This document shows, in pieces, positions 1 through 30,431 of a stretch of DNA of 46,785 nucleotides. The stretch lies in assembly GCA_029337695.3 (NCBI GenBank), contig GCA_029337695.3_4851.1; one strand, 5' to 3'. Made by a program: the position numbers and the translations under genes. The notes beneath the pieces are model-generated. The model had not been told where the DNA came from, searched no databases, and saw only the letters and a program-made list of their open reading frames with translations. This DNA comes from a phage. Position 1 is the first letter of the stretch, and each line of letters starts with the position of its first letter.

Positions 1-7
1 AAAAAAA

Positions 8-400
8 ATGGCAGCACCAACACCTGAAGAATTAGTAAGCCAGATGGCATCCCGTGGAATGACTATCACCACAACGGATGCGTCCGGTATTTTGTGCCTC
101 GTGGCATCAATCAGTGAATGCCTTGAGCTGAACTATCCAAATGATGAATGCCGACAAAATGCGATCATGCTGTGGGCTTCCATCCTGATTAGCGCAAATA
201 CTGCTGGTCGCTACGTTACCAGCCAGAGCGCACCTTCTGGCGCATCACAATCATTCGCGTATGGCAGTAAGCCGTGGGTGGCGCTGTACAATCAGATGAA
301 GCTACTGGATACAGCCGGATGCACTGGCGATTTGGTGGAAGACCCTGACGGAAGCGGTAAACCGTGGTTTGCGGTTGTGCGTGGGAGTAAGTGCAAATGA
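8..400 (+). CDS. putative head-tail connector/adaptor protein
   Basis: 130-aa ORF first in a run of co-oriented small structural genes upstream of the tail module; ATG at 8 follows a poly-A tract. Function is by position only. Confidence 0.4.
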   Translation: MAAPTPEELVSQMASRGMTITTTDASGILCLVASISECLELNYPNDECRQNAIMLWASILISANTAGRYVTSQSAPSGASQSFAYGSKPWVALYNQMKLLDTAGCTGDLVEDPDGSGKPWFAVVRGSKCK

Positions 401-738
401 CTTCGCTGGCTAACTGGAGCTACACGCAACCATGCACCATCTGGCATAAGAGCGGCACTGACAAGTACGGCAAGCCGACTTTTGACGCACCAGTAAGCAT
501 CATGTGCGATTATGGTTTTAATGATGATGTATCGACTGACGCGAAAGGCAATGAGATTGTGCAGAAGAATACTTTCTGGACAGAATACACTGGCGCGAAG
601 GTTGGTGATTACATCATGATTGGCACGGTGACAGAAGTTGACCCGCTGGCGGCTGGTGCAAATCAGATTCTGAATGTGATTAATTATGGCAACACCCTGA
701 ATAGGGCAGAGCCACCAGACTTTGCACTGGTGACATAA
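391..738 (+). CDS. putative head-tail joining/head closure protein
   Basis: 115-aa ORF overlapping the previous stop (coupled), in the position of a lambda W/FII-like gene. Confidence 0.4.
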   Translation: MQMTSLANWSYTQPCTIWHKSGTDKYGKPTFDAPVSIMCDYGFNDDVSTDAKGNEIVQKNTFWTEYTGAKVGDYIMIGTVTEVDPLAAGANQILNVINYGNTLNRAEPPDFALVT

Positions 739-1136
739 TGCCAGCAAAATTAAGAGGTGTCAGGCAGGCCGTAGAGAGAACTTCGCAAATTGTGGATGAA
801 ATAATCGCCACGAAAGCTGTGCGTGCTCTGAAGTCAGCGACATACATCATCCGCACTGAGTCAGCCACGTTGACGCCGATTGATACATCGACGCTGATTA
901 ACAGTCAGTTTGATACTGTGGAAGTTAGCGGAACTCGAATCACTGGCAAGGTTGGCTATTCTGCAAAATATGCGCTGTACGTCCACAATGCCAGCGGTAA
1001 ACTTTCAGGTAAGCCGCGCAGCAATGGTAACGGCACGTATTGGTCGCCGAATGCTGAACCTAGATTCTTAACAAAGGCTGCCGATAAAACTCGCAGCCTC
1101 GTTGATTCAGTGATAAAAAAAGAAATGAATATTTAG
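738..1136 (+). CDS. putative neck/tail component (HK97 gp10-like)
   Basis: 132-aa ORF whose start overlaps the upstream stop; synteny with head-tail joining genes. Confidence 0.4.
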   Translation: MPAKLRGVRQAVERTSQIVDEIIATKAVRALKSATYIIRTESATLTPIDTSTLINSQFDTVEVSGTRITGKVGYSAKYALYVHNASGKLSGKPRSNGNGTYWSPNAEPRFLTKAADKTRSLVDSVIKKEMNI

Positions 1137-1624
1137 CCGTGGTTTGCGAACTCCAAAAACAGTTCATCTACTTTTTTGCAATAGGCTTTATGGGCGGCTT
1201 CTTTGTCTGAAAACCTACCAAGATGATAGCTTTTCCCATGCATCTTTACCGTGGCTCTCCATTTTCCCGTGTACTTGCAAAAATGAACTCCTTTATATCC
1301 AGGCGTGTTTGATTTAGATATCTTTGTGTTCCTTGCGTTCTCGCAGTCACTGGCCTCCCTCAGATTTGAAATTCTATTGTCATCACGAATATTGTTTATG
1401 TGATCAATTTCATGCTCAGGGACATATCCATAATGGATAAACCAAGCCACTCGGTGCGCCCTTAATCTTTTCTTCCCAAGCGTTATGTATCCTGCGTCGT
1501 TGTGATAATTTGCAATATCACCTTTTGATATTTTCCCGCAACTTACAGCCCAGGTGAACAATCCGGTAATATGGTCGTATTTAACTCTTGACGCGATTGC
1601 TATGTAATCCCGCTCTGAAATCAT
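1133..1624 (-). CDS. HNH homing endonuclease with AP2 DNA-binding domain
   Basis: HNH motif HEIDHINNIRDDNRISNL plus C-terminal AP2-like YKGVHFCKYTGKWRATVKMHGKSYHLGRFSDKEAAHKAY; opposite strand to the flanking structural genes. Confidence 0.8.
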   Translation of the reverse strand: MISERDYIAIASRVKYDHITGLFTWAVSCGKISKGDIANYHNDAGYITLGKKRLRAHRVAWFIHYGYVPEHEIDHINNIRDDNRISNLREASDCENARNTKISKSNTPGYKGVHFCKYTGKWRATVKMHGKSYHLGRFSDKEAAHKAYCKKVDELFLEFANHG

Positions 1625-1643
1625 TTACTCACTCCAAAAGGGA

Positions 1644-1698
1644 AACGCCCCTGTCAGGTGGAACATGGTTGCAACAAAACCATACTGACAAGGGCGTT
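1644..1698 (-). other. 14-bp stem / 27-nt loop hairpin in the HNH 5' leader
   Basis: AACGCCCCTGTCAG (1644-1657) pairs with CTGACAAGGGCGTT (1685-1698); perfect with one G-U on the minus-strand transcript, 20 nt upstream of the HNH start. Confidence 0.5.
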
Positions 1699-1753
1699 AA
1701 ATTCATTGTTGCCTGTGTGTCGTTTCGGGTTCCACGCCTACGTGACATAGGTA

Positions 1754-2170
1754 GTGTATGATATGTGCATCGATATTGCAATATTGGGGTTTAATATGAA
1801 CATGCTTGAGCTTGTTGATGCATATCTTCAGGATGCCGGATTGTATGATGGCTGGACTTCACAGTTGCAGTTCTGGAATGACACCGGAGACGGCAATGAG
1901 CAATTTATTGTTCTGCAATCCAATGGTGGCACGCAGGTGATGAATGGCCTCGGCGGTGACTTTTATTTCTCGCTGTATGTTGTCGGCAAACATGGACAGT
2001 ATAACGTGTCGGATGTTGATGCTAAAGCCAATGAGATTATCGAATACATCAAGACGCACCCGATTGATTCATGCGTTAACTACATCCAGTTGCAAGCGCC
2101 ACTCGGTAGACCAATGCTGACGGAAGAGAAAAGACCAGTACATGAGTTGCTTTTGCGGGTTGTGAAATAA
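1754..2170 (+). CDS. putative tail completion/terminator protein
   Basis: 138-aa ORF (alternative starts at about 1795 or 1801) between the neck genes and the major tail protein; followed by a terminator. Confidence 0.4.
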   Translation: MYDMCIDIAILGFNMNMLELVDAYLQDAGLYDGWTSQLQFWNDTGDGNEQFIVLQSNGGTQVMNGLGGDFYFSLYVVGKHGQYNVSDVDAKANEIIEYIKTHPIDSCVNYIQLQAPLGRPMLTEEKRPVHELLLRVVK

Positions 2171-2173
2171 ATA

Positions 2174-2194
2174 AAGCCGCATGAAGCGGCTTTT
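2174..2194. terminator. bidirectional rho-independent terminator
   Basis: AAGCCGC-atgaa-GCGGCTT stem with T-run on the plus strand and T-rich tract on the minus strand; sits between the + tail gene and the 3' end of the minus tRNA. Confidence 0.7.
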
Positions 2195-2198
2195 AATA

Positions 2199-2275
2199 TG
2201 GTGGACACGGAGGGATTTGAACCTTCAATCAGCCGATTATGAGTCGGTTGCTTTAACCAATTAAGCTACGCGTCC
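2199..2275 (-). tRNA. tRNA with CAU anticodon (Met or Ile2), CCA encoded
   Basis: Hand-folded 77 nt: acceptor GGACGCG/CGTGTCC (one G-U), D-stem GCTT/AAGC, anticodon loop CTCATAA, T-loop TTCAAAT, discriminator A, CCA. One mismatch each in the anticodon and T stems. Confidence 0.7.
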
Positions 2276-2382
2276 ATAAGTGCTGGTTTAAGCATTGCCA
2301 GCGTGCTTTCTTAACATCCAGCCCCGTAACCCATACATACCCCTACATATGATTGCGATAATGCTGGATGTTAAGTGTTGTG

Positions 2383-2476
2383 GCGACAGGAATCGAACCT
2401 GCTTCCATCGGTGCGCTGCCGATTACAGTACGCGCGGCGGTCAGCTACATGACTAGTATTTTCACTGTCGCCTATC
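2383..2476 (-). ncRNA. tRNA-like element (GGTTCGATTCC T-arm-like motif), non-canonical
   Basis: Minus strand reads GGCGACA...GCAGGTTCGATTCCTGTCGCCA with complementary ends, but I could not fold a canonical cloverleaf; possibly a degenerate or type II tRNA or a processing structure. Confidence 0.3.
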
Positions 2477-2756
2477 TGCTAGCTCGCCATTGAGCTTCAC
2501 CACAACGGAAAGAGCACTGAAACACACGTCTGTGTCGCCTGCGCAATGGGTTCGAGTTCCACTGATATGCGCCAATGCTCTTACCTGTTGTGTGCCGGTT
2601 ACGCGTCCGGCGTCTCTCGACCGCTAATTATTTTTGACTTCTTCAAATTGAGATTTCATTCATTTTGGTCACCTTCCTTTCAGAAAGTTGAAAACTCACG
2701 CATAAATCAATTCATATCTTAAGTAGACTTTAATCTACACCACAAAAATAGTAACT

Positions 2757-2776
2757 GTCAACACCTGTGATATAAT
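2757..2776 (+). promoter_or_regulatory. putative promoter with extended -10 (TGATATAAT) for the major tail operon
   Basis: TGTCAACACC...TGATATAAT about 40 bp upstream of the 2813 start; the same block recurs at 4150-4175; preceded by the AATCTACACCAC motif at 2732-2743. Confidence 0.5.
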
Positions 2777-2812
2777 CACCACGTTAGCAGCTAACACAAT
2801 TCGGAGATCGAA

Positions 2813-3529
2813 ATGGCTATTTGTGCAAATGATAAAGGCGTTCTGGTTGGTCGAATGACCAGACTGTTCCTTGCTGAAGGGTGCGGTGACGCAGTTCCGG
2901 ATGCAGAAGATTGGAAGTATTTAGGCTCAACCACCAGTAAAGGTGTTGACTACTCGCCACAGACCACTACGTCGGAAGCGGATACCGCTGGCGGTTTTGT
3001 TTCCACTCTCGTTACCAGTTCTGACATGACCATCAGTGCAGAGGTAGAAATCCGCAAGAACGACCCAAGCGATGAGTTTGGCTTCCACCGACTGGTTGAG
3101 ATTTACGCCACTGAACTGAAAGCTCGTCGCCAGCCTTCCTTGTGGGTGCGTCAGGTGACTGGTGCAACTATCGTTACCGCGTACTGCAACATTACCAGCA
3201 TCAGTTACGAAGGTGGCACCAACGACATCGTAACAGGCAGCCTTGAATTCAAGGTTTACGATTCTGACAGTGTCACCGTTGAAAGCCTTGAACCTCTGAA
3301 GTTCACTACAGACTTGCCATCAACTGACACGGCTGGCAGCCCGTTAACCGTTGCTGTTGAGGGTGGCGTCTCTCCTTACACCTACGTGTGGCGCAAAGAT
3401 GGCGTGGTTGTTGGTAGTGAATCTGGCGCAACGCTGACAAGTCCTACTGCTGGTGTATATACCGTTACGGTCACGGATTCGTCCACTGACCCGGAAATTA
3501 TTATCAGCACGGCGTGCACCGTATCCTGA
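2813..3529 (+). CDS. major tail protein with C-terminal Ig-like domain
   Basis: 238-aa ORF upstream of chaperone and tape measure; Thr/Ser/Val-rich C-terminus typical of Ig-like decoration domains; own promoter and terminator. Confidence 0.7.
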   Translation: MAICANDKGVLVGRMTRLFLAEGCGDAVPDAEDWKYLGSTTSKGVDYSPQTTTSEADTAGGFVSTLVTSSDMTISAEVEIRKNDPSDEFGFHRLVEIYATELKARRQPSLWVRQVTGATIVTAYCNITSISYEGGTNDIVTGSLEFKVYDSDSVTVESLEPLKFTTDLPSTDTAGSPLTVAVEGGVSPYTYVWRKDGVVVGSESGATLTSPTAGVYTVTVTDSSTDPEIIISTACTVS

Positions 3530-3535
3530 TAAAGA

Positions 3536-3563
3536 AAAAGCCCCGAAAGGGGCTTTGTTTTAT
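3536..3563. terminator. bidirectional rho-independent terminator
   Basis: AGCCCC-gaaa-GGGGCT hairpin flanked by A-run and T-run, between convergent genes. Confidence 0.75.
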
Positions 3564-3760
3564 TCTTGCGGTGGTTCTGGTGATTTAGCCCAATGGGTGG
3601 CTGGAATTCCGTGACAGCGGTCTAATTCACTAACAAATATCTTGCTGCCAATGTTGTCGACAACTTTACATACCGCAGTTCTAACGGCACCGCGAAATGA
3701 TGTAAGAACCATCTCTCCATCTTCAGGCATCTTCTCACTACACTTAATCCACTGGCTCAT
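3560..3760 (-). CDS. DUF551 domain protein
   Basis: MSQWIKCSEKMPEDGE...ATHWAKSPEPP matches the DUF551 pattern (WI...LPE...THW.PLPEPP). Confidence 0.65.
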   Translation of the reverse strand: MSQWIKCSEKMPEDGEMVLTSFRGAVRTAVCKVVDNIGSKIFVSELDRCHGIPATHWAKSPEPPQE

Positions 3761-3900
3761 ATCACCTTATCCTCATCAAAAATCACACCAATCACACGAA
3801 GCAAGTCTTTCGCCATGCGCTCAGCTTCTTCATATTCATAACCTGCATCGACATACAAGTCAGTGTAGGAAATCAGGTCTGCTTTTGTTTGCTCGTTCAT
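3757..3900 (-). CDS. small hypothetical protein (47 aa)
   Basis: MNEQTKADLISYTDLYVDAGYEYEEAERMAKDLLRVIGVIFDEDKVI; ATGA overlaps with both neighbours indicate translational coupling. Confidence 0.4.
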   Translation of the reverse strand: MNEQTKADLISYTDLYVDAGYEYEEAERMAKDLLRVIGVIFDEDKVI

Positions 3901-4091
3901 TTCTTGTCGCCACTTTTAACCAATGCCCAAACAAGTGCTGCAACCCACCCAATAAAGCTCCATCCGACAAGAATATTCAATACACAGATTGCGGTCGTAT
4001 TTGTGTGCTTTCTTTGCAATGCCACAAATGACGGGAGAAGATAAACAAATACAACCAATCCAGCAAAAAGCAACAAAATAACAACATCCAT
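3897..4091 (-). CDS. superinfection immunity (Imm-like) small membrane protein
   Basis: 64 aa with two hydrophobic segments; LLPSFVALQRKHTNTTAICVLNILVGWSFIGWVAALVWAL resembles the Imm superinfection-immunity family signature. Confidence 0.6.
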   Translation of the reverse strand: MDVVILLLFAGLVVFVYLLPSFVALQRKHTNTTAICVLNILVGWSFIGWVAALVWALVKSGDKK

Positions 4092-4149
4092 AATTCACCT
4101 CAGTCATATCTCGTTTAGATGACTTGAATCTACATCACCACCTCGCAGG

Positions 4150-4175
4150 TGTCAACACCACTGAGATGATATAAT
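4150..4175 (+). promoter_or_regulatory. putative promoter with extended -10 (TGATATAAT)
   Basis: TGTCAACACC...TGATATAAT block identical to 2757-2776, preceded by AATCTACATCACC at 4128-4140. Confidence 0.5.
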
Positions 4176-4195
4176 CAACATCAGTCAAATTCAGG

Positions 4196-4912
4196 ATGCA
4201 AAACATGAGCAATCGCACGCCACTAACAGAAATCGGGGAGATGCGCATCTCACTGGCTGATAAGAGTTTTTTCTTTAAGCCATCATTCCGTGCCATGAAT
4301 GAAATCGGCACACCAAAAGAAATTGTCGAGGTGTACGCCAGACTCAATGGCATTGATTATGTTGCGCCATTGCAGCACGTCGAATACCTGCCATTTGGCG
4401 CGCAGATGCAGGTCATGAAGACCATCAGTAAACCTGTGTATGGTCGCCATGTGCTGAGCGCGGCCTATATTGTCATGCAGTCATGCTGTGAAGATGATAT
4501 TTCTGTGCTGATTGGTGGGTGGAAGCCAACACCGCGCGGCGTGCGATACGTACCGGGCATCATGCCAGTGAGCGACATTATTATTATTGCGCGCAATCTG
4601 ATGCAGCACGGCATCATCGGCAAGTCACCACTCAAAGTGCCTGAGCGCCTGGAAGAGCAAGGCAAGAAAACCACAAACGAGTTTCATGCGTCGCAATACA
4701 TCATCTCAGCACGCACGCATTTCGACATGACGCGAGATGAGGCCGAAAACCTGTCCATGACAGAGTTTCAGATGATGATTAAGAATAAATATCCAGAGCC
4801 GAAAGGGTTAACGAAAGAAGAGCGCGCGGCAGAGTACGATCAGGCTAAAGCAGACCGTGAGCGCATGAAGGCACTGGCTGAACGCAAAGCGAAAAAAGCG
4901 AGGAATACATAA
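4196..4912 (+). CDS. putative tail assembly chaperone
   Basis: 238-aa ORF between major tail protein and tape measure; basic C-terminus; no separate frameshift ORF apparent. Confidence 0.45.
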   Translation: MQNMSNRTPLTEIGEMRISLADKSFFFKPSFRAMNEIGTPKEIVEVYARLNGIDYVAPLQHVEYLPFGAQMQVMKTISKPVYGRHVLSAAYIVMQSCCEDDISVLIGGWKPTPRGVRYVPGIMPVSDIIIIARNLMQHGIIGKSPLKVPERLEEQGKKTTNEFHASQYIISARTHFDMTRDEAENLSMTEFQMMIKNKYPEPKGLTKEERAAEYDQAKADRERMKALAERKAKKARNT

Positions 4913-7290: not shown

Positions 7291-11091
<3,801 letters not shown>

Positions 11092-14084: not shown

Positions 14085-14594
14085 TCAGAAGGGAATATCG
14101 TCTTCGAAGTCCATCGGCGGCTCATTTACTCCTTGTGTGCTTTGCTGTTTTGGTGGCTGCTGCTGTTGTTGATTTGTTACACATCCGCCTTGAGGTTGTT
14201 GGCCTGATTGCTGGCGTGGTTGTTGCTGACCAGAATCATCACGCTTACCACCAAGCATCTGCATGACTCCGCCCATCTGTGGGATAACAATCTCAGTGGT
14301 ATATCTGTCTACGCCGTTGCTGTCAGTCCACTTACGAGTGCGTAGCTGGCCTTCTATATAAACCTGAGAACCTTTGCGAAGGTATTCTCCTGCAACTTCC
14401 GCAAGTTTCCCGAATATTACCACGCGATGCCATTCAGTCTGTTCTTTCTTTTCTCCTGTTTGCTTGTCTTTCCACTGCTCAGATGTTGCAACAGAAAGGT
14501 TGGCAATTGAAGAGCCTGATGCTGAATATTTAACTTCAGGGTCGTTACCAACTCGACCAAGGATTATGCACTTATTAATACCAATCGAAGACAT
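14085..14594 (-). CDS. ssb: single-stranded DNA-binding protein
   Basis: OB-fold-like N-terminus, Gln/Pro/Gly-rich linker and acidic C-terminal tail ending DDIPF. Confidence 0.85.
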
Positions 14595-15112
14595 TACTTG
14601 AATCTCCCGTTTTTATCTCTTAATCTGCCATTATGATTCTCTGTGGCGTGTAATGATGCGTGCTCTGACTTCGTCATAAGCATTAGGTTACTTGGATGGT
14701 TGTTTGTTTTATCATGGTCTATATGATGAACGCATTCATTGTGAAACAACCTCCTCCCAATAATGCCTTCCATAACTACGACATGCTCTCCTCTTCCTTT
14801 GTTTTCACCCATAGTTATCTCGACATAACCATTCGGTTTTACAGAGCGACCCTTGCCAACTCCTTTCTTTGATTTTGATATATTTTGCTTCCATTCTTCA
14901 GTAAACTTTCGTTTTTTACCCCTAAGTCCTGAACCAAGTCTTCCCTCTGCGGCAGCAATTCTTATTGCATCTCCTCTGCTTCTCAATATTCCGGCTTTCT
15001 TAAATCTAAACCTCAATGTTGACATGGCTATTCCTGTTTCATTGGAGATTTGAGGGATGCTCATGCCAGACAAATACATATCAAACTCATTCATATGCAC
15101 CTCCTTGTGCAA
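14594..15112 (-). CDS. HNH homing endonuclease with N-terminal HTH
   Basis: C-terminal [27 protein letters not shown]; inserted between ssb and erf. Confidence 0.75.
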
Positions 15113-15174: not shown

Positions 15175-15834
15175 TCAAAATCCTTCAATTGGAGTTGGTT
15201 TATGTTCTGGTTTTTCTTCCTGCGGTTCTGGCTGCTGTGGTTGCGGTTTAGCCAGTTTGGCAGGGTTGAATGATTCGCCTGATACCATGAATTTAGCCTT
15301 CATCTCCTGATAAGCGCCAACAATAACGCGAGTTGCTGCATCATCACCACGAAATGCCTTGTATTCTTCGCCATAGATTGAAGCTAATTCTTCCATGCTG
15401 GATGCGTTGCGAATCAATGCAACTGCGTCTTTTGGTGATTTGCGAGCGGCATTACCGTCATCATCAGCCTGAGCAATACCAAACATTGCCGCGATGGAAT
15501 ATCTGCGTGCATACGTCATTGCGGAGCCATACCCCTGCGCATCCTTCTTAGCTACTGGCATTGGCATCACTGATGACATGTACTCGCCAGATTCATGCAT
15601 TATCGTTGTTTCAAGTTTAAGCACATCCATTGAATCACCATCAATGGCATTCTGGATGATTATAAGACCGTTAGCCTCAAGCGCTGGACGTATTGCATCA
15701 AGGAATGACTCAAGGTTTGCGTAATTGCTTTTCAGGTGTGGGTTTTTGGCGTTTTTCTTTGCACCACTACTCATCACCTTGCGAGCCTCAACCAGAGCCT
15801 TAATCAGGTTAGCTTTCTGTTCAGAGAAAATCAT
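15175..15834 (-). CDS. erf: Erf-family single-strand annealing protein
   Basis: 219 aa in a recombination module next to SSB and exonuclease; Pro/Gln-rich C-terminal tail. Confidence 0.6.
   Translation of the reverse strand: MIFSEQKANLIKALVEARKVMSSGAKKNAKNPHLKSNYANLESFLDAIRPALEANGLIIIQNAIDGDSMDVLKLETTIMHESGEYMSSVMPMPVAKKDAQGYGSAMTYARRYSIAAMFGIAQADDDGNAARKSPKDAVALIRNASSMEELASIYGEEYKAFRGDDAATRVIVGAYQEMKAKFMVSGESFNPAKLAKPQPQQPEPQEEKPEHKPTPIEGF

Positions 15835-29006: not shown

Positions 29007-30431
<1,425 letters not shown>

Follow-up and report, generated by a model that had tools for sequence, protein, structure and literature searches.

The 46,785-nt stretch of phage DNA analysed here (contig GCA_029337695.3_4851.1, hereafter the window) represents a ~47-kb small siphovirus of the Skatevirus group. 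At about positions 1049-1795 it carries what is, judging from alignments with related phages, a mobile cassette with a homing-endonuclease gene, lying antisense between two late genes whose translation is coupled. This cassette would comprise a recoded 3' end of the upstream Neck1 gene, an open reading frame (ORF) for an HNH-AP2 endonuclease, an expression module of ~165 bp, and a junction providing the downstream tail-terminator gene with a new ribosome-binding site (RBS) and ATG. The expression module contains a conserved leader with a bipartite hairpin immediately upstream of the endonuclease ORF. An earlier model-made annotation of the same DNA (hereafter the sequence-only reading) had pointed out this hairpin and missed that it seems to belong to a promoter-plus-leader module common to three diverged endonuclease genes. 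We propose, at a probability of roughly 45%, that the leader is a self-contained expression module in which the hairpin and the interrupted U-rich tract following it act as a leaky terminator, or attenuator.

The insertion is polymorphic among related phages. It is flanked by the Neck1/tail-completion gene (738..1136, + strand; PHROG 5 'tail completion or Neck1', E=1.9e-13; annotated as HK97 gp10 family in RefSeq relatives) and by the tail terminator gene (1796..2170, + strand; Pfam Phage_tail_terminator_3, E=1.8e-41). The junction between these genes is uninterrupted in at least 42 phage records, and in the empty site of phage Skate they overlap by 4 nt (GTGA). The sequence-only reading had described an HNH-AP2 homing endonuclease gene inserted against the direction of the neck genes; both parts of this description hold, as the ORF lies on the minus strand (1133..1624) amid head-tail genes of the + strand, and the gene is not ancestral everywhere. 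Aligned with Skate, the window has ~660 extra bases (about 1131-1795) plus a replaced tract of ~85 nt, and homology restarts exactly at the tail-terminator gene. On this side of the insertion, the alignment with Skate delimits a site-specific junction (1782..1798, + strand) that supplies the tail-terminator gene with its new RBS and ATG: the start is a coupled GTG overlapping the upstream stop codon in all empty-site alleles, and an ATG with its own RBS in the window. On the other side, the last ~85 nt of the Neck1 gene (1049..1136, + strand) are densely recoded, mostly by synonymous changes. The alignment of alleles shows that this recoded end is co-inherited with the endonuclease gene, being present in 9/9 alleles that carry the homing-endonuclease gene (HEG), while the other version, ending in the GTGA overlap, is found in 5/5 empty-site alleles. 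The recoded tract probably replaces or destroys the putative target of the enzyme, a co-converted flank together with a target destroyed in carriers being the usual signature of free-standing homing endonucleases (PMC2988022). The cassette is 96-99% identical across phage backbones that differ by 5-14%.

The inserted gene itself (1133..1624, - strand, 163 aa, ATG at 1624) is, by its domain content, an ordinary phage HNH(-AP2) free-standing endonuclease, and it is already annotated as such in relatives. Its stop codon overlaps that of the convergent Neck1 gene. The ORF matches Pfam HNH_3 (PF13392; E=8.5e-16) with 57.8 bits, exceeding the curated cut-off of 24.8 bits, and Pfam AP2 (E=6e-6) with 26.9 bits, under the curated cut-off of 33.3 bits. 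Although below this threshold, the C-terminal AP2 domain is probably true, and a profile built from the three paralogs matches solved plant AP2/ERF domains (WRI1, E=2.2e-9). The HNH_3 residues D74, H75, N77, N87, N96 and N99 are invariant across the three paralogs. The ORF is dispensable for growth, as genome-reduced mutants of phage seszw lacking it are viable (CiPGr study, PMC9825161). Two seszw laboratory mutants have also lost part of the leader. The deletion in seszw_200S (1160-1661) removed the U-tract, the Shine-Dalgarno (SD) sequence and the 3' arm of the hairpin, and the phage is viable; plaque formation therefore does not depend on the hairpin, which is in line with its being the regulatory portion of a selfish element. 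In seszw_200L (MZ375333.1; 1106-1621), the Neck1 ORF has been fused into the leader and crosses the hairpin on the + strand, the resulting coding sequence of 516 nt stopping just short of the tail-terminator gene, and this phage is still viable as well. Separately, the site-1 HNH-AP2 gene, i.e. the version found at the Neck1/tail-terminator junction, matches metagenome contig CYGL01008786.1 as two pieces in different frames, which would represent either a frameshifted, decaying copy or an assembly error.

The leader is found upstream of other endonuclease genes as well. In blastn searches with the insert, only positions 1632-1781 match the phages Skate, LPSTLL, IME207 and ECO95, at about 91-93% identity. 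In these four phages the leader precedes a different HNH-AP2 gene (163 aa, 41% amino acid identity), located antisense between a post-tape-measure gene and a minor tail gene (site 2); the equivalent junction in the window, at 7763, is uninterrupted. At a third site, encountered in metagenomic phages, the same leader precedes an HNH-AP2 paralog of 166 aa lying antisense between a 115-aa ORF and Neck1. The paralog ORFs share ~41-45% amino acid identity. Conservation of the hairpin, on which the sequence-only reading had made its proposals depend, is observed in the relatives' leaders at all three insertion sites. At site 2 of Skate (29500-29539, compared with 7740-7765 of the window), ~20 nt from the original 3' end of the upstream gene (CTGCCGGAGTACCCATAATG) are present as a duplicate right of the leader, by which the downstream minor tail gene keeps its RBS; left of the insert, the functional copy of this 3' end is recoded.

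The distribution of the leader was established by exact-pattern scans with three independent anchors, by a covariance model of the leader, and from 95 phage-collection records. The leader is confined to this phage group, occurs in a single copy per genome, and in natural sequences always lies directly 5' of one of the three paralogs, antisense to the late operon. All three anchors retrieved the same 15 viral contigs and 8 metagenome contigs, which added no diversity for covariation analyses. No leader was found by exact-pattern scan of 185,579 bacterial and archaeal species genomes, nor did a blastn comparison of the leader with 5,426 E. coli genomes yield any match. The covariance model detected no diverged copies in the window, in the whole Skate genome or in 76 loci with other HNH-AP2 relatives, and co-oriented HNH genes in the same phages have no leader upstream. 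An Rfam 15 scan of positions 1-4500 returned nothing at 1625-1745 even at E<=5, and no description of the leader was found in the searched literature. We also considered an upstream hairpin as a family-wide trait of HNH-AP2 genes. This was rejected: a hairpin with z<-3 is present upstream in only 9/76 loci, two of these being the same leader and the others non-homologous. Very stable non-homologous hairpins occur within ~130 nt upstream of HNH-AP2 ORFs in five IMG/VR loci (L052, L072, L059, L062 and L046), including an 18-bp perfect stem beside the RBS in L072 and a hairpin of -39 kcal/mol followed by TTTTTT in L052. Such stable hairpins 5' of other HNH-AP2 genes may be ordinary terminators of the upstream genes.

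Between sites, the leaders are 88.5-98.2% identical at the nucleotide level, versus 49-53% for the ORFs and 34-44% for their third codon positions. We further compared three within-site pairs (Skate vs UViG_082659, two site-3 copies, and Skate vs CYGL). In the first pair, from site 2, the leader is 89.5% identical, the ORF 88.8%, its third positions 76% and the flanks 71-73%; in the site-3 pair the corresponding values are 94.7%, 87.4%, 75% and 92%. Leader differences are fewer than predicted from the third-position rate in all three pairs (P = 2e-4, 5e-8 and 1e-4). One could argue that the leader merely carries a promoter and an RBS, its identity stemming from recent recombination or gene conversion (a shuffling of the PeSL type known from T4-type phages) and the hairpin being a passenger. 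Leader variants are indeed not sorted by insertion site: Akira and 64795_sal3, both with site-1 insertions, have the site-2 type of promoter, and Akira also has site-2 type single-nucleotide polymorphisms in the leader, so leaders have been exchanged between cassettes. Some cross-site identities (98.2%) are above within-site ones (89.5%). Yet the substitutions are unevenly spread, changes in the stem keep the pairing, and the loop, the bulge and two 7-nt segments complementary to them are avoided (P=0.018, see below); moreover, the leader evolves slower than the third positions of its own ORF where the flanks are just 71-73% identical. Such a neutral module thus seems improbable.

On the minus-strand RNA, the hairpin (1644..1698) is bipartite, with a 14-bp lower stem, a 7-bp upper stem, a 7-nt apical loop and a 6-nt 3' bulge. 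The arms of the lower stem (1644-1657 and 1685-1698) form 14 bp including one U·G pair, with a GC-rich base (CGCCC/GGGCG). The sequence-only reading had noted this 14-bp stem and the 27 nt it encloses, and both are confirmed from the sequence and by RNA folding, the predicted energy of -28.9 kcal/mol comparing with -14.1 +/- 2.9 kcal/mol for shuffled sequences (z = -5.16; 0/200 shuffles as good). The enclosed 27 nt (1658-1684) do not form a plain loop: 1678-1684 pairs with 1664-1670 as the upper stem, leaving the apical loop at 1671-1677 and the bulge at 1658-1663. The + strand version of the hairpin reaches -25.4 kcal/mol and loses the upper stem. Variation within the hairpin is restricted to four adjacent pairs of the lower stem (U·G, C-G or U-A at one pair; U-A to U·G; G-C to G·U; and a double change from U-A to C-G), and four of the five kinds of stem substitution retain pairing, the exception being one U·U. 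All wobbles are G·U on the HEG-sense strand and would be A·C mismatches on the + strand. As they pair only in the HEG sense, an RNA structure on the minus-strand transcript is favoured over a DNA palindrome or a + strand element. The inverted repeat could still be imagined to act as double-stranded DNA, either as an operator, for instance for autorepression through the AP2 domain, or as a cruciform. Its arms hold GCC-rich half-sites (AACGCCC / GGGCGTT), and I-TevI, which represses its own promoter, offers a precedent (PMC2988022). But three stem positions vary to G·U, which breaks the DNA symmetry and leaves a single strand able to pair as RNA, the repeat occupies nt 47-100 after the predicted transcription start and does not cover the promoter, and three paralogs of ~41-45% identity would need one common operator. 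We therefore hold a role as DNA to be very improbable.

The sequence-only reading had placed the stem 20 nt upstream of the start codon and suggested two roles for it. The stem does lie just upstream of the ATG at 1624, the measured distance being 19 nt. The first suggested role, restriction of translation, holds in part at best. The hairpin ends 8 nt 5' of the GGAG motif and its main stem excludes the SD sequence; at sites 1 and 2, which have different coding sequences, a weaker second helix is predicted to join the U-tract and SD sequence to the first codons, whereas none is predicted at site 3. Translational occlusion by this weaker helix is possible in two of the three paralog contexts, and the folding predictions make it inconsistent across contexts. 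The second suggested role was that of a termination or processing site for the minus-strand tRNA unit upstream. The hairpin does lie downstream of the tRNA-Met(CAT) gene (2199-2275, - strand), on the same strand, and looks terminator-like. However, the terminator scan assigns the tRNA a canonical terminator of its own directly downstream (2193-2173, - strand), and the 375-nt tail-terminator gene intervenes on the other strand. Moreover, the hairpin accompanies the endonuclease gene at two further sites in other phages, where no tRNA is nearby, and it is absent from relatives that keep the tRNA without the HEG, such as Skate, which has the tRNA and no hairpin at the neck site. A role in the tRNA unit is thus not supported, and we attach hardly any probability to it.

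The conserved leader block extends from TCACGTAGG (1745) to GGAG (1632-1635) in all three contexts, and from these limits it would correspond to a transcribed 5' untranslated region (UTR) of ~115 nt, with a predicted start at about 1745-1746. Read in the HEG sense, it consists of a small 5' hairpin, an A/C-rich linker, the bipartite hairpin, an interrupted U-rich tract, and the SD sequence. The small hairpin, CACG-UAGG-CGUG (1733..1744, - strand), lies at the predicted 5' end of the transcript and is weakly conserved, as one lineage breaks a pair but can shift register. The U-rich tract (1636..1643, - strand) adjoins the 3' side of the bipartite hairpin and reads UCCCUUUU, or UUACCUUUUU in the site-2 copies; written as UUUCCCUUUU, it follows the GC-rich base of the stem and is U-rich in all variants. 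A terminator scan reports a minus-strand terminator-like site overlapping this tract, and no other terminator-like site on the minus strand between the endonuclease ORF and the window start. The SD sequence GGAG (1632..1635, - strand), 7 nt before the ATG, is invariant in all leader variants and marks the 3' limit of homology between the paralog cassettes.

Upstream of the block lies a predicted sigma-70-like promoter (1753..1781, - strand), with a -35 box TTGCAA (1781-1776), a 17-bp spacer and a -10 box TACACT (1758-1753). Sites 1 and 2 have the promoter TTG(C/A)AA-17 bp-TACACT in common, and the promoter scan lists the Skate version, TTGAAA-17-TACACT. The promoter region of site 3 is unrelated in sequence, yet contains TTGCAA-17-TACCAT in the same register, with the conserved block following after 7 nt. 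The predicted promoter boxes and their spacing are thus kept across two unrelated upstream sequences, and homology begins at the predicted +1. No convincing boxes for a + strand promoter inside the leader that would drive the downstream late gene were found by eye or by scan. A leader peptide (AUG at 1706-1704, 25 codons, stop overlapping the SD sequence) was considered and rejected, since two lineages have AUA in place of the AUG and others have lost the frame through a 1-nt indel in the upper stem.

This arrangement can be read in other ways than as an attenuator. The conserved unit might be an independent small RNA gene, made of a promoter, a ~105-nt RNA and a terminator, and acting in trans, with the ORFs riding on read-through. 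The conserved block does begin exactly at the predicted +1 and end with the terminator-like hairpin and the SD sequence, it is far better kept than the ORFs, and its A/C-rich single-stranded stretch with a 3' hairpin and U-tail resembles many small RNAs. But in natural sequences it never occurs without an adjacent HNH-AP2 ORF, and it has no Rfam match and no homolog in E. coli genomes or in the 185,579 bacterial and archaeal species genomes. A search for trans targets inside the window returned only short matches at chance level, none of them convincing, and viable mutants exist without the 3' arm of the hairpin, so that we see little chance for a small RNA of this kind. Alternatively, the hairpin might be an RNA processing or stability element, either an RNase III-type site or an exonuclease barrier, that sets the 5' end or the half-life of the mRNA. 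Its helix of about 21 bp is broken by an asymmetric internal loop, a layout that recalls the T7 processing sites and makes it a candidate for RNase III-type cleavage. The long bipartite form with invariant bulge and loop differs from the simple terminators of this phage, the U-tract is interrupted, and in T4-type phages processing by RNase E lowers the transcripts of segB, segG and mobE (PMC2988022). A processing site would, however, not need a U-rich tract after the stem, yet the tract is U-rich in all variants, and we consider this explanation unlikely, if less so than a small RNA.

The 5' part of the leader contains two segments that may pair with the hairpin. GCAACAA (1706..1712, - strand) is a perfect complement of the apical loop UUGUUGC (1671-1677), and GUGGAAC (1729..1735, - strand) is a perfect complement of GUUCCAC (1658-1664), which consists of the six bulge bases and the adjoining G of the upper stem. 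Both segments are invariant, and the two 7-nt complementarities are in nested order. When the 47-nt 5' part was shuffled 10^6 times, the two complements arose jointly in 24 cases (p ~2.4e-5; post hoc test), and the ten variable columns of this part all lie outside the two segments (P=0.018). In minimum free energy folds of the nascent transcript, the 1729-1735/1658-1664 helix is present at lengths of 88 and 95 and the full hairpin at 102. This pairing could represent a kinetic anti-terminator, a tertiary contact, or the remnant of an internal duplication; as it involves the loop and bulge region, the alternative helices may be tertiary contacts and not competitors of the hairpin. A more far-reaching idea is that the leader is a portable riboregulator traded among homing endonuclease genes, the folding of its terminator being tuned, or switched by a factor, through the 5' segments. 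We find this attractive and rather doubtful, though somewhat less so than a processing element.

In the attenuator reading, which we prefer, these parts would work together as follows. The endonuclease gene faces against the late operon and hence cannot use the late transcription of the phage, so the module would supply transcription of its own, the host RNA polymerase starting near 1745. Most transcripts would stop at the hairpin and U-tract (about 1636-1643), and a minority would read through and give rise to a small amount of endonuclease. Attenuation would thereby keep the enzyme level low and limit antisense transcription into the essential neck genes; a shielding of these genes is suggested by the lack of any other minus-strand terminator-like site between the ORF and the window start. 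Pairing of the two 5' 7-nt segments with the loop and bulge region may delay the folding of the terminator and so set the fraction of read-through. The enzyme would presumably cut the uninterrupted Neck1/tail-terminator junction of co-infecting relatives, and repair would copy the cassette along with the recoded tract.

Several observations weigh against the attenuator reading. The window promoter has 8/12 matches to the consensus and is not listed by the promoter scan. The U-tract, of the pattern UU(U/A)CC(C/U)UUU(U), is interrupted by CCC or ACC, and the terminator-like site overlapping it rests on a suboptimal sub-hairpin and not on the full hairpin. With its 55 nt, the bipartite hairpin is unlike the canonical terminators of this phage (2173-2193 and 3537-3556), which have 8-bp stems and loops of 4-5 nt. 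The 5' complementarities were found post hoc, and covariation cannot judge them, all four segments being invariant. For the stem, covariation is thin, with one double change and 32-41/500 shuffles reaching the observed values; this formal support is weak because the leaders vary little (19 distinct variants with a mean column identity of 93%). Gene conversion from one cassette to another could also add to the identity of the leaders without any RNA function, and no transcript maps for phages of the Skatevirus group were found in the literature.

The cassette has counterparts among known mobile endonuclease genes. Like the mobE and seg genes of the T4 family and like phage HNH-AP2 proteins, it places a small ORF between conserved genes and occurs in some close relatives but not in others; as with free-standing HNH endonucleases, the flank is co-inherited (co-conversion), the gene is dispensable, and the HNH_3 catalytic residues are conserved in the three paralogs. 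Unlike most T4 endonuclease genes, which use neighbouring promoters, the window gene lies antisense in a late structural operon with its own predicted promoter and leader. The nearest T4 parallel is the antisense gene segD, which is heavily terminated (PMC2988022). Endonuclease genes of the T4 family are held down by weak terminators and hairpins, about 30% of the mobE transcripts ending at a weak internal terminator, and seg43(25) of Aeromonas phage 25 has a very stable hairpin of no known function immediately 5' of a free RBS (PMC2988022). The window leader resembles these hairpin controls (I-TevI/II/III, segB, mobE, segF), and seg43(25) most closely, in having a stable hairpin just 5' of the endonuclease start. 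It differs from them in that the hairpin lies downstream of its own predicted promoter, contains no late promoter and leaves the RBS unsequestered by the main stem; it is also bipartite (21 bp), has loop and bulge complements in the 5' leader, serves three diverged genes, and shows no sequence similarity to the T4-family hairpins.

The module also recalls the PeSL cassettes of T4-type phages, in which a sigma-70-like promoter, a stem-loop and an SD sequence abut a non-essential mobile ORF, in that it is common to different mobile ORFs and its variants are exchanged between cassettes (PMC2839356). PeSLs number about 50 per genome, occur in hyperplastic regions, have stem-loops that overlap or abut the promoter boxes, and are implicated in modular shuffling (PMC2839356). 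In contrast, the window leader is single-copy, tied to HNH-AP2 genes only, has its stem-loop 47 nt into the predicted transcript, and is found in small siphoviruses of the Skatevirus group. With leader attenuators it shares a terminator-like hairpin in the 5' UTR with upstream complements, one alternative helix being predicted in the nascent chain before the hairpin. Unlike such attenuators, it encodes no leader peptide (some lineages have a disrupted version of the short upstream ORF), contains no recognisable aptamer and belongs to no known family, and the alternative helices meet the loop and bulge, including a single base of the terminator stem (the G closing the upper stem).

The closest relatives of the window are the Salmonella phages Seszw, LPST10, BS5, VSt472, Akira and 64795_sal3 and the Escherichia phage swi2, with 91-95% identity to its first 3 kb. 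GenBank record OR544125.1 (Acinetobacter phage vB_AbaM_AB4P2) is ~94% identical to this Salmonella/Escherichia group and has the same cassette; its host or morphotype label looks doubtful. The co-directional late run of the + strand starts with a gene for a DUF7370 protein (8-400), followed by a 115-aa ORF (391-738) as 5' neighbour of the Neck1 gene, and also includes the major tail protein gene (2813-3529). A minus-strand island (2173-2761) inside the late operon begins with promoter-like boxes (TTGACA-18-TAGATT, 2761-2732), followed by ~350 nt of unassigned sequence, and contains the tRNA-Met gene, the equivalent of which is annotated as tRNA-Ile in Skate. Positions 2375-2460 (- strand) show a tRNA-like acceptor/T-arm end, GGTTCGATTCCTGTCGCCA on the minus strand. 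ARAGORN with relaxed thresholds did not call this stretch as a tRNA and Rfam gave only a weak tmRNA match (E=0.36); the stretch may represent a tRNA that has decayed or is unusual. Another antisense cluster, of three short ORFs (3560-4091, - strand), separates the major tail gene from the tape-measure chaperone genes, and one of its ORFs encodes a 64-aa membrane-like protein; the Skate equivalents of this cluster include an 'immunity to superinfection' protein.

A second HNH_3 gene, without AP2 domain (14594..15112, - strand), lies between ssb (14085-14594) and erf (15175-15834), co-oriented with both. The sequence-only reading had taken it for an insertion, and this agrees with its absence from LPST10, seszw, DS8, Segz_1 and Vi II-E1, in which ssb directly adjoins erf. 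At >=80% coverage it is found in only 3 records (e.g. Klebsiella phage KlebP_265). It is unrelated to the endonuclease gene at 1133..1624 and has no copy of the leader.

Homing endonuclease genes need enough expression to spread, and not so much as to harm the phage that carries them. Here, three endonuclease genes near saturation at silent sites, located at three sites in an essential operon, have one leader at about 90-98% identity. On these comparisons, this points to the leader as a reusable regulatory module that is under selection of its own and moves from one selfish gene to another. The system lends itself to experiments: seszw has already been CRISPR-edited, viable mutants lacking the ORF or half of the hairpin exist, and there are natural donors and empty-site recipients. 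Its practical side is modest: the module is a compact, self-insulated cassette for expressing genes that are inserted antisense into phage genomes. If the riboregulator reading is true, the leader would allow an antisense selfish gene to be expressed at a low level and in a timed manner without harm to the essential operon that hosts it, and would represent a class of cis-regulatory RNA that is new and confined to mobile endonuclease genes.

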